This document shows, piece after piece, positions 53,163 to 54,797 of a stretch of 64,000 nt of DNA; within the stretch, counting starts at the first letter, position 1; every line of letters begins with the position of its first letter. The DNA lies in contig OX597819.1 of the NCBI GenBank assembly GCA_951406725.2, positions 5,580,001-5,644,000 of the forward strand. The letters are read 5' to 3'. Made by a program: the position numbers and the translations under genes. A model generated the notes under the pieces. That model saw nothing but the letters and a program-made list of their open reading frames with translations. It was not told the DNA's origin and searched no databases. The DNA comes from Octopus vulgaris. Its lineage: Eukaryota.

Positions 53163-53420
53163 ATTTCTATTGTATGTCTTCATTTGCGCATGCTTATATC
53201 TTACATACATACATACATACATACATACATACATACATACATACATACATACATACATACATATATATATACATACATATATATATATATATATATATAT
53301 ATATATATATATATATATATATATATATAATATTAATTAGAGACAAAACCACTATTTTGCAAAACAAACAAGGAAAGACTTAATCAATACATAAAATTTT
53401 AATAAAAAGTAAAAAAAACG

Positions 53421-53463
53421 CCACTACAATTGTTTCATGTCTTGAACGACAATCTTCAGGTGG
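53421..53463 (-). ncRNA. Minimal type I hammerhead ribozyme motif (identical inverted copy)
   Basis: reverse complement of 53508-53550. Confidence 0.75.
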
Positions 53464-53507
53464 ATTTCCGATTTTCATAAATTGAAACTGATTTGAAAAT
53501 CGGAAAT

Positions 53508-53550
53508 CCACCTGAAGATTGTCGTTCAAGACATGAAACAATTGTAGTGG
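53508..53550 (+). ncRNA. Minimal type I hammerhead ribozyme motif
   Basis: CCAC CUGAAGA U UGUC-GUUCAA-GACA U GAAAC AAUU GUA GUGG; predicted cut after 53546. Confidence 0.75.
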
Positions 53551-54797
53551 CGGTTTTTTAAAACTTTTATTAAAATTTTATGTATTGATTAAGTCTTTCC
53601 TTGTTTGTTTTGCAAAATAGTGGTTTTGTCTCTAATTAATATTATATAATATTTTACTATAAAATTGGATTTAATCCTAAATCTGATTTTTTTCCTGTAA
53701 ATTTGGATTTATTCCCTAATATTTATATATATATATATATATATATATATATATATATATATATATATATATATATTAGAAGAAATGAGGTAATCATTTT
53801 TAATTGTCACTTTAATTTTAACTTTCCTATGATATACAATTTTCAAGATGGTGTAATTTGGTTGTTCATTTTGAATCGATAAAAGGTTTTTTTCAAATAT
53901 TTTATTTATAAGTCTGTGTGTATATATATGTAGTGGTATAAATATCAACACACAAAAATTTTTTTTTCTTCTCCATTTCCTCCCTTATTTTTATTTATTT
54001 TTTATTTTTATTTTTATTTTTATATTTATTTTTATTTTTATTTTCCCTTTTCTCTTTTTGTCTCTCTCCCCTTCTCCAAACACACAGAGACACACACACA
54101 CACGCACACAAACACACACGGACACACAGACACACACACACACACACCTCTACAAAATGATCATACAAAGTATGACCCCAAATGACATTTGACCATCCCC
54201 AAAATCACAAAAGGTGTAATTTCTGGCCAGCCTACCCACCAACACACACTCAGTGACACCAGAATGGACAGAGAGCTAAAATTCTTAGAACTCCCTAGGG
54301 GGTCCAGCAGGCCAAAGGAAATCCTTCTTCTTCTTCTTCTTCTTCTTCTTCTTTTTCTTCCCTCTCCCTCTCCCTTCCCCTCTTTCTCTTTAGCCTCAGA
54401 TACAAACGCACACACACACACACACACACATACACATACACACATGTTCTCTCTCTCACTTCCTCCTCCTCCACCTCACCCTCTTATACTGTCTTGTTCC
54501 TCCCCACTACTACGAAACTATAAAATGATCAAATTCCCCACAAAGGAATTAATTTGATTTGAAAACCCCACTAGAATGGGAGAAAGCACTAATAATCTGA
54601 ATGATATGATCTGAATGATATGAGATATATATATGTAAAAAATGTAATATATAAATAAATATCTATAAACATGAACCATCCGATCTTCTGATTACCTCAT
54701 TTCTTCTAATATATAATACCTGTACATCATCTCCAAACCTTCCAATATATATATATATATATATATATATATATATATATATATATATATATATATA

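Follow-up and report, generated by a model that had tools for sequence, protein, structure and literature searches.

The window, i.e. the whole 64-kb stretch of DNA analysed here (G000:C6:5580001-5644000 of a 2.8-Gb genome), carries at 53323..53725 a palindromic insert, the components of which are collected in Table 1. The near-perfect inverted arms between (TA)n tracts described in the initial annotation are borne out by both flanks and by the alignment of the arms, in which 53323-53477 (minus strand) and 53494-53652 (plus strand) share 154 identities, with 2 mismatches and 4 gap columns. Two stretches are peculiar to the right arm, a 73-nt extension and 25 nt from the parent element's exon 1, and the splice junction is present in both arms. 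The claim of one hammerhead on each strand also holds, the two motifs having the same sequence. No target-site duplication is discernible inside the (TA)n repeat at the insert flanks. Hereafter, the end of the longer arm (the equivalent of 53725) is called L and that of the shorter one (about 53652) S; in the parent, L lies ~60 nt short of the ATG of the ORF. In the second insertion of the window, 22 nt of TA-like filler separate the two arms.

Table 1. Features of the palindromic insert, its flanks and the related insertion in the window
Feature	Position	Strand	Remarks
Second S+L insertion of the same family, strongly 5'-truncated, without hammerhead	52480..52605		S arm 52480-52558 minus; L arm 52581-52605 plus
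Left (TA)n target tract	53261..53322	.	flank sequence
Short (S) arm, a spliced leader copy: 5 nt of exon 1, exon 2, S end	53323..53477	-	
S-arm hammerhead motif	53421..53463	-	predicted cut between 53425 and 53424
Central 4-nt microhomology TTCA, common to both arms	53474..53477	.	sequence
25 of the 27 nt of the parent PLE exon 1, without the Inr-like start	53474..53498	+	parent exon 1 = L091:2287-2313
Exact splice junction	53498..53499	+	site of a GT...AG intron in the parent, of 561 nt (upstream pLTR, L091:2314-2874) or 1031 nt (downstream pLTR, L091:7400-8430)
Exon 2 up to the S end	53499..53652	+	S end: first putative reverse-transcription start site
Minimal type I hammerhead	53508..53550	+	core CUGAAGA 53512-53518; predicted cut after 53546
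73-nt PLE "tail", finishing at the L end	53653..53725	+	L end: second putative reverse-transcription start site
Right (TA)n target tract	53726..53776	.	flank sequence

Elsewhere in the window, a hammerhead-like core (CUGAUG, a GUCAC/GUGAC stem and GAAA) lies on the minus strand at 53060-53103, within another repeat that is bounded by TA tracts, and does not satisfy the type I descriptor used below. Inspection by eye suggests ORF fragments of other PLE families, with RT-thumb and GIY-YIG-like motifs, at 274-1173 and 15934-17120, and Helitron-like helicase fragments at 3915-6523 and 43006-44272.

Among 1424 first-look candidates for relatives of the right arm, the 40 that were scored show 96-100% identity, and the 28-mer at the S end has 1211 exact matches in the genome. 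Walking 5' led to L091, a tandem pLTR-ORF-pLTR arrangement with a period of 5086, whose ORF is interrupted by stops; relatives with open frames of ~840 aa exist at 95-97% identity. Linkage to a PLE ORF and the presence of many genomic copies, for which a genome search had been proposed as a check, are thus found. The intact 840-aa ORF of L206 contains the RT motifs GAPDS and YRDD and the C-terminal GIY-YIG motifs VVYK...YIG...R, and shares 33-39% identity with 11 aligned homologues; the named homologues are from Argonauta and Octopus, and searches of Pfam (with the broken and the intact ORFs) and of PDB sequences gave no meaningful named match. As in the Hydra-clade PLEs described in the available text of Craig et al. 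2021 (PMC8557442), the GIY-YIG domain is C-terminal, and DKT (SDKTRN in L206), a CxCX5C linker (CTCRDKSNC), CxxC (CYLC) and CxH (CRH) are present without an internal CCHH. The same text lists for the clade (TA)n targets, a canonical hammerhead, an inverted 5'-truncated copy and a tail at one end only (given as a qualitative feature), all of which are found here, as are the partial-tandem pLTRs of an EN+ PLE. On the other hand, the unit period of 5.1-6.8 kb (5-7 kb for the family) exceeds the <3 kb of the clade, which is a tendency and not a strict criterion, the RWK motif reads KWK (RIKWK in L206; RWR or RWK in the aligned homologues), and the tail has 73 nt compared to the published 30-40 bp. 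An octopus family, Hydra-1_Obim, is listed among the Hydra-clade PLEs in the same source, but its hammerhead and protein, as printed, differ from ours. Judging from the motifs and homologues, the parent appears to be an autonomous Hydra-clade PLE.

Several peculiarities of the parent family deserve to be recorded. L206 (2964-5486) encodes an asparagine-rich insert of ~100 aa between the RT thumb and the nuclease, missing in the aligned homologues; comparable inserts are reported for rotifer PLEs in the part of PMC3846280 available. The sister family represented by L222 has the same type of ORF and a different leader, with no obvious acceptor just upstream. In L092, L093 and L091:5692-8430 the 3' UTR, the pre-start region and the intron are composed of related sub-repeats (75-85% identity), and some copies have 1.0-1.2-kb duplications across the start site.

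The spliced state of both arms had been overlooked in the initial annotation. In L091, GTATGT follows the sequence that matches up to 53498 and TTTTAG precedes the sequence that matches from 53499, and the junction cannot slide off GT-AG; the insert thus exhibits the exact intron removal expected of a processed retrocopy. Exact 20-mers count 214 + 295 = 509 spliced junctions of two types versus 387 retained acceptors, these being lower bounds that count arms and not insertions. The second type (295 matches) joins 4 nt earlier, and in 12 unspliced copies examined, including open-ORF ones, a single change creates a GTAAGT donor 4 nt upstream. Most GTAAGT-donor copies share the helix II type of the class with the earlier junction, and spliced copies with this helix II type join 4 nt earlier; one copy with the GTAAGT-creating change used the old donor. 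That the position of the junction tracks the donor mutation points to removal of the intron by the spliceosome and not by deletion of DNA. The hundreds of intron-free copies in the genome make it likely that the elements copy their spliced RNA.

The stronger donor 4 nt upstream is found in the open-ORF subfamily (L206-L211, L216, L217, L221, L223), where U-A closes helix II, and the spliced-copy class of this subfamily is the larger of the two. In L265 (G000:C2:52884700-52886000) both arms contain identical foreign sequence joined exactly at the acceptor of the element, as if a further exon had been spliced to exon 2 before retrocopying. Contigs of four runs guessed to be RNA cover exon 2 and the ORF start in short pieces; the join between exon 1 and the ORF is absent among the pieces listed, and the intron is partly uncovered.

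The 5' edge of the spliced arms coincides with an Inr-like TCACTT. Among 105 distinct spliced arms, collected with a pattern that demanded 12 nt of exon 1 and in part with a query favouring longer copies, 99 reach 12-28 nt into exon 1, two scored 31 through the palindromic centre, and four reach 48-95 nt. TCACT is described as an Inr-like sequence of a rotifer PLE in the available text of PMC3846280, and TCACTT is a candidate transcription start site here. The four longer arms among the 105 indicate that transcription also starts further upstream or that read-through RNA is spliced as well. A cap-derived extra G at the 5' ends was considered and dropped, as such a G can derive from the inverted arm.

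The geometry of the insertions is strikingly uniform. Ninety entries, in which one locus is counted twice and the first 30 loci were chosen for a long arm, comprise 62 L+S, two S+S and no L+L insertions, seven with an irregular end and 19 single-armed ones. A 3' end lies beside (TA)4+ in 82 of these entries, and (TA)4+ occurs at most 30 nt from both ends in 66/90. In a pattern-selected set of 62 rows (one locus gave two rows, and both insertions of the window are included), 52 are L+S; of these 52 pairs, 16 have an L arm with the greater 5' reach and another 16 such an S arm, whereas in 20 the two end within 15 nt of each other. The loop haplotype is the same in both arms of 26/27 insertions, compared to 111/757 matches between insertions, and gene conversion inside the palindrome could contribute to this identity. 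The simplest reading is that each strand of the target primed once on sense RNA, both events drawing on one source.

The initial annotation regarded the insert as a distinct coding-free derivative. However, in an exon 2 tree of 175 rows (bootstrap unsettled, 0.762) the spliced label changes 42 times, at least 12 of these changes being forced by starred branches, and the interleaving of spliced copies with intron-keeping autonomous ones does not support such a derivative. Six sequences are identical across the two classes, and a C/T variant of exon 1 is tied to the same loop haplotypes in both. Shuffled labels give a mean of 56.8 changes compared to the 42 observed, so that spliced and unspliced copies are more clustered than expected by chance. 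It is therefore unlikely that the spliced copies descend from a single non-autonomous master; they are better explained as repeated by-products of the autonomous family, with some secondary amplification from spliced copies being possible. Of the earlier interpretation, the PLE origin, the youth and the non-coding character of the insert stand, and the notions of a separate derivative and of a molecular switch (see below) are not supported.

The partition between the two kinds of copies is sharp. In none of the 133 spliced arms does the copy continue into the leader of the ORF. Among 23 ORF starts, 13 have the family hammerhead upstream, nine have no hammerhead there and one belongs to the sister family; in all 13 family hammerheads the acceptor is kept. 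The intron is retained in the ORF-adjacent pLTRs (13/13) and absent in the copy from the window and in the 509 exact junction matches. The 0/133 and 13/13 counts together imply that full-length copies of the spliced mRNA are missing from the sample. Within ten tandem copies the paired pLTRs show 0-5 differences per 450 nt and are mutually closest in 9/10, which does not separate a circle, strand transfer and read-through from each other.

A type I hammerhead descriptor run across both strands of the whole window matches only the two motifs of the palindrome. They consist of helix I (CCAC/GUGG), the core CUGAAGA, helix II (UGUC/GACA) closed by U.U, and helix III ACAAUUGU, which is a self-complementary palindrome; the core CUGANGA, GAAA, UH and three helices of a minimal type I hammerhead are present, and the G10.1-C11.1 closing pair is not. 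The U-U mismatch at the first position of helix II, pointed out previously, is real (10.1:11.1), but it is the state of one subfamily, the position being U.U, A-U or U-A across the subfamilies and never G-C, in contrast to the conserved G-C reported by Cervera and de la Pena 2014 (PMC4209133, available part). An Rfam search, proposed as a check, yielded no hammerhead match at the gathering score (best Hammerhead_HH10, 17.3 bits, E 4.2); matches to Rfam miRNA families, all below gathering, were put down to the hairpin shape. The core and the 4-bp stems are nearly invariant across subfamilies, loop 2 being variable in both length and sequence. Within the family, neither helix I nor the four-pair helix II shows two-sided compensatory changes, and variation that preserves the structure is confined to the closing pair and helix III; the sister family retains the helix III palindrome as ACGAUCGU via a two-sided change. 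Hammerhead-like descriptor matches occur in two of 20 loci of distant RT relatives, a number too small for covariation.

The minimal type I hammerhead with a palindromic helix III agrees with the earlier description, and so, by prediction, does its dimer-type fold: the cofold MFE of two isolated motifs is the double hammerhead, at -20.2 versus 2 x -8.2 kcal/mol, and the active monomer fold has a predicted probability of 4e-4. The proposed switch between cleavage and a masking hairpin is not supported. Because the arms are head-to-head, read-through RNA of either strand makes the antisense arm first; a transcript across the palindrome is predicted to form a ~155-bp duplex of about -224 to -241 kcal/mol, in which the probability of helix II pairs is ~1e-18 and the hammerhead would be masked. 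The hammerhead cut was also considered as the 5' boundary of the copies and was rejected for the family: in a set of arms retrieved with a pattern starting at the cut position, 82/84 continue across the predicted site and only 2/84 end near it, so the templates were uncut or re-ligated. The short helix I, palindromic helix III and dimer-type fold resemble those of the minimal PLE hammerheads in the available part of Cervera and de la Pena 2014 (PMC4209133), who attributed opposite-strand motif pairs 100-700 bp apart to truncated PLEs; compared to their set, helix II has 4-5 bp here and the pairs are spliced-leader copies ~50 nt apart. Inverted truncated pLTRs with hammerheads on opposite strands are thus already published, and a palindromic hammerhead pair is ordinary PLE anatomy.

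The sequence match to the parent, the precise absence of its GT-AG intron, the 3' ends at two fixed positions (short and long) and the flanking TA tracts are direct observations, and it is highly probable that the insert comprises two head-to-head intron-free copies of a PLE leader, likely made when both strands of a nicked (TA)n target were extended by the RT of the element on spliced sense RNA. In this scenario, the RNA would start at the Inr-like TCACTT and be spliced after 27 nt; downstream of the junction would come the hammerhead, then S and L as a pair of AU-rich priming sites, and finally the ORF. Because S and L lie 5' of the ATG, priming in the leader would give only cDNAs of 180-255 nt that run off the 5' end of the RNA. 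S would be primed by one target strand and L by the other, the cDNA ends would join through microhomology, and the hammerhead would ride along as an uncut passenger. Copies with the ORF would arise differently, through priming on read-through RNA at its downstream pLTR, whose copy of the intron stays.

A related process is the twin priming of LINE-1 elements, in which the RNA of the element is primed by both strands of the target and the resulting inversion is joined by microhomology. The arms of LINE-1 twin-priming products represent non-overlapping RNA segments with a variable second site, whereas in the present family the arms overlap and both priming sites are fixed.

Other explanations of these inserts have to be weighed against target priming on spliced RNA. 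The spread of a single spliced master as a non-autonomous SINE-like mini-element or retrozyme, implied by the initial annotation, would account for hundreds of short non-coding copies and for the clustering of spliced rows beyond chance, and it is compatible with the internal promoter known for Penelope (PMC2377424, available part) and with one tandem of spliced units in L018. Nevertheless, haplotypes are common to spliced and intron-keeping copies in many subfamilies, the spliced copies follow a donor mutation found only in the intron-keeping parent, and most copies lack the Inr-like start. Nor are there tandem arrays with one hammerhead per unit; the two or more tandem hammerhead units that define non-LTR retrozymes are replaced here by an inverted pair, L018 being the one tandem case among the loci examined. 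The polyphyly of the spliced copies already largely refutes this master, which we regard as distinctly improbable. Slightly less so, but still unlikely, is a single priming event after which the cDNA, or an antisense template, serves for fold-back self-priming (Arkhipova et al. 2013; PMC3846280, available part), with the endonuclease resolving the second end. This published model would explain the haplotypes common to both arms and the central microhomology. However, a GT-AG intron in sense orientation cannot be spliced out of antisense RNA; as the two arms are both spliced, their template was sense, spliced RNA. Moreover, fold-back of one L-primed cDNA cannot yield the 16/52 L+S pairs in which the S arm contains 5' sequence missing from the L arm, and a cDNA primed at S offers no tail for copying.

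It is very improbable that the individual locus has a function, be it regulated self-cleavage of its RNA or the supply, under selection, of dsRNA to ADAR or Dicer. The hammerhead core is intact, two isolated motifs are predicted to fold as a double hammerhead, and the transcript would form the long duplex described above; on the other hand, the locus is one among many equivalent young insertions with variable centres, the predicted active monomer fold is rare and would be masked in read-through RNA, and the copy in the window lacks the bases of the start site. The locus probably represents an inert by-product of PLE anatomy that is already known. An assembly artefact or intron loss through deletion of DNA has a nearly negligible probability. 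Palindromes between microsatellites are indeed difficult to assemble, but identical ends combined with differing centres recur at dozens of loci, and the same long-plus-short layout with differing central junctions in 52/62 head-to-head pairs eliminates chance or a one-off assembly error. A deletion would have to produce two distinct junctions, each of which fits a GT donor and the same AG.

The closest parallel for the leader is Penelope of Drosophila virilis (Schostak et al. 2008, PMC2377424, and PMC4209133, available parts), which resembles the present family in its start, short exon 1, spliceosomal intron and hammerhead at the 3' splice site, and differs in the length of the intron (75 bp versus 0.56-1.03 kb here) and of exon 1 (46 versus 27 nt). 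Most of its transcripts are spliced and its active genomic copies keep the intron; the available text of PMC2377424 contains no description of genomic intron-free leader copies. For priming, the appropriate comparison is the in vitro TPRT of PAc, the Anolis Poseidon protein (Frangieh et al. 2024, PMC11167929, available part), where two internal RT starts also bound the tail and, as in our reading, both strands of an AT-rich target are nicked and extended on an uncut RNA template. In contrast to the TA-like sites 5' of the ATG proposed here, the PAc start sites are inside the ORF, in an AC-rich stem-loop without homology to the target; spliced templates and L+S pairing are not addressed in that part of the paper. 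Metazoan non-LTR retrozymes (bioRxiv 10.64898/2026.07.22.740005, available part) are similarly non-coding, have a type I hammerhead and are tied to PLE pLTRs, but they form tandem units with one hammerhead each, as opposed to an inverted pair derived from the leader of a coding parent. The available text of PMC8557442 contains no description of a Hydra intron or of spliced copies, the two matches to "intron" in its supplement both concerning Physarum, and the parts of PMC13282606, PMC6431247 and PMC6765202 available contain nothing further on spliced-leader retrocopies. Our literature search found no report of abundant spliced-leader retrocopies, although it did not extend to most subscription papers and nearly all supplements, where a prior mention is possible.

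PLEs have been singled out for keeping introns through retrotransposition, and Craig et al. 2021 called the significance of this retention unknown (PMC8557442, available part). Arkhipova et al. 2013 proposed an antisense self-priming template for both the retention of introns and the head-to-head palindromes (PMC3846280, available part). The spliced two-armed copies argue against the antisense-template explanation of the palindromes, and they narrow the old puzzle of why full-length PLE copies keep the intron. We offer a joint reading, to which we assign somewhat less than even chances: retention would be set by the place of priming and not by avoidance of spliced or sense RNA. Spliced mRNA would be copied often, but only from the two leader sites, giving dead two-armed palindromes, whereas full-length copies would be made from the downstream pLTR on unspliced RNA, with the upstream pLTR rebuilt from that segment via a hammerhead-cut, re-ligated circle or via strand transfer; a dimeric enzyme would use S for one target strand and L for the other. 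The restriction of the spliced state to short leaders and of the kept intron to ORF-bearing copies, together with the strict pairing of one short and one long arm, leads to quantitative predictions that can be put to the in vitro assay already established for PLEs. If this reading is true, the family records the whole cycle in the genome, from the start site through the choice of splicing to both priming sites, and it makes the question of PLE replication testable.
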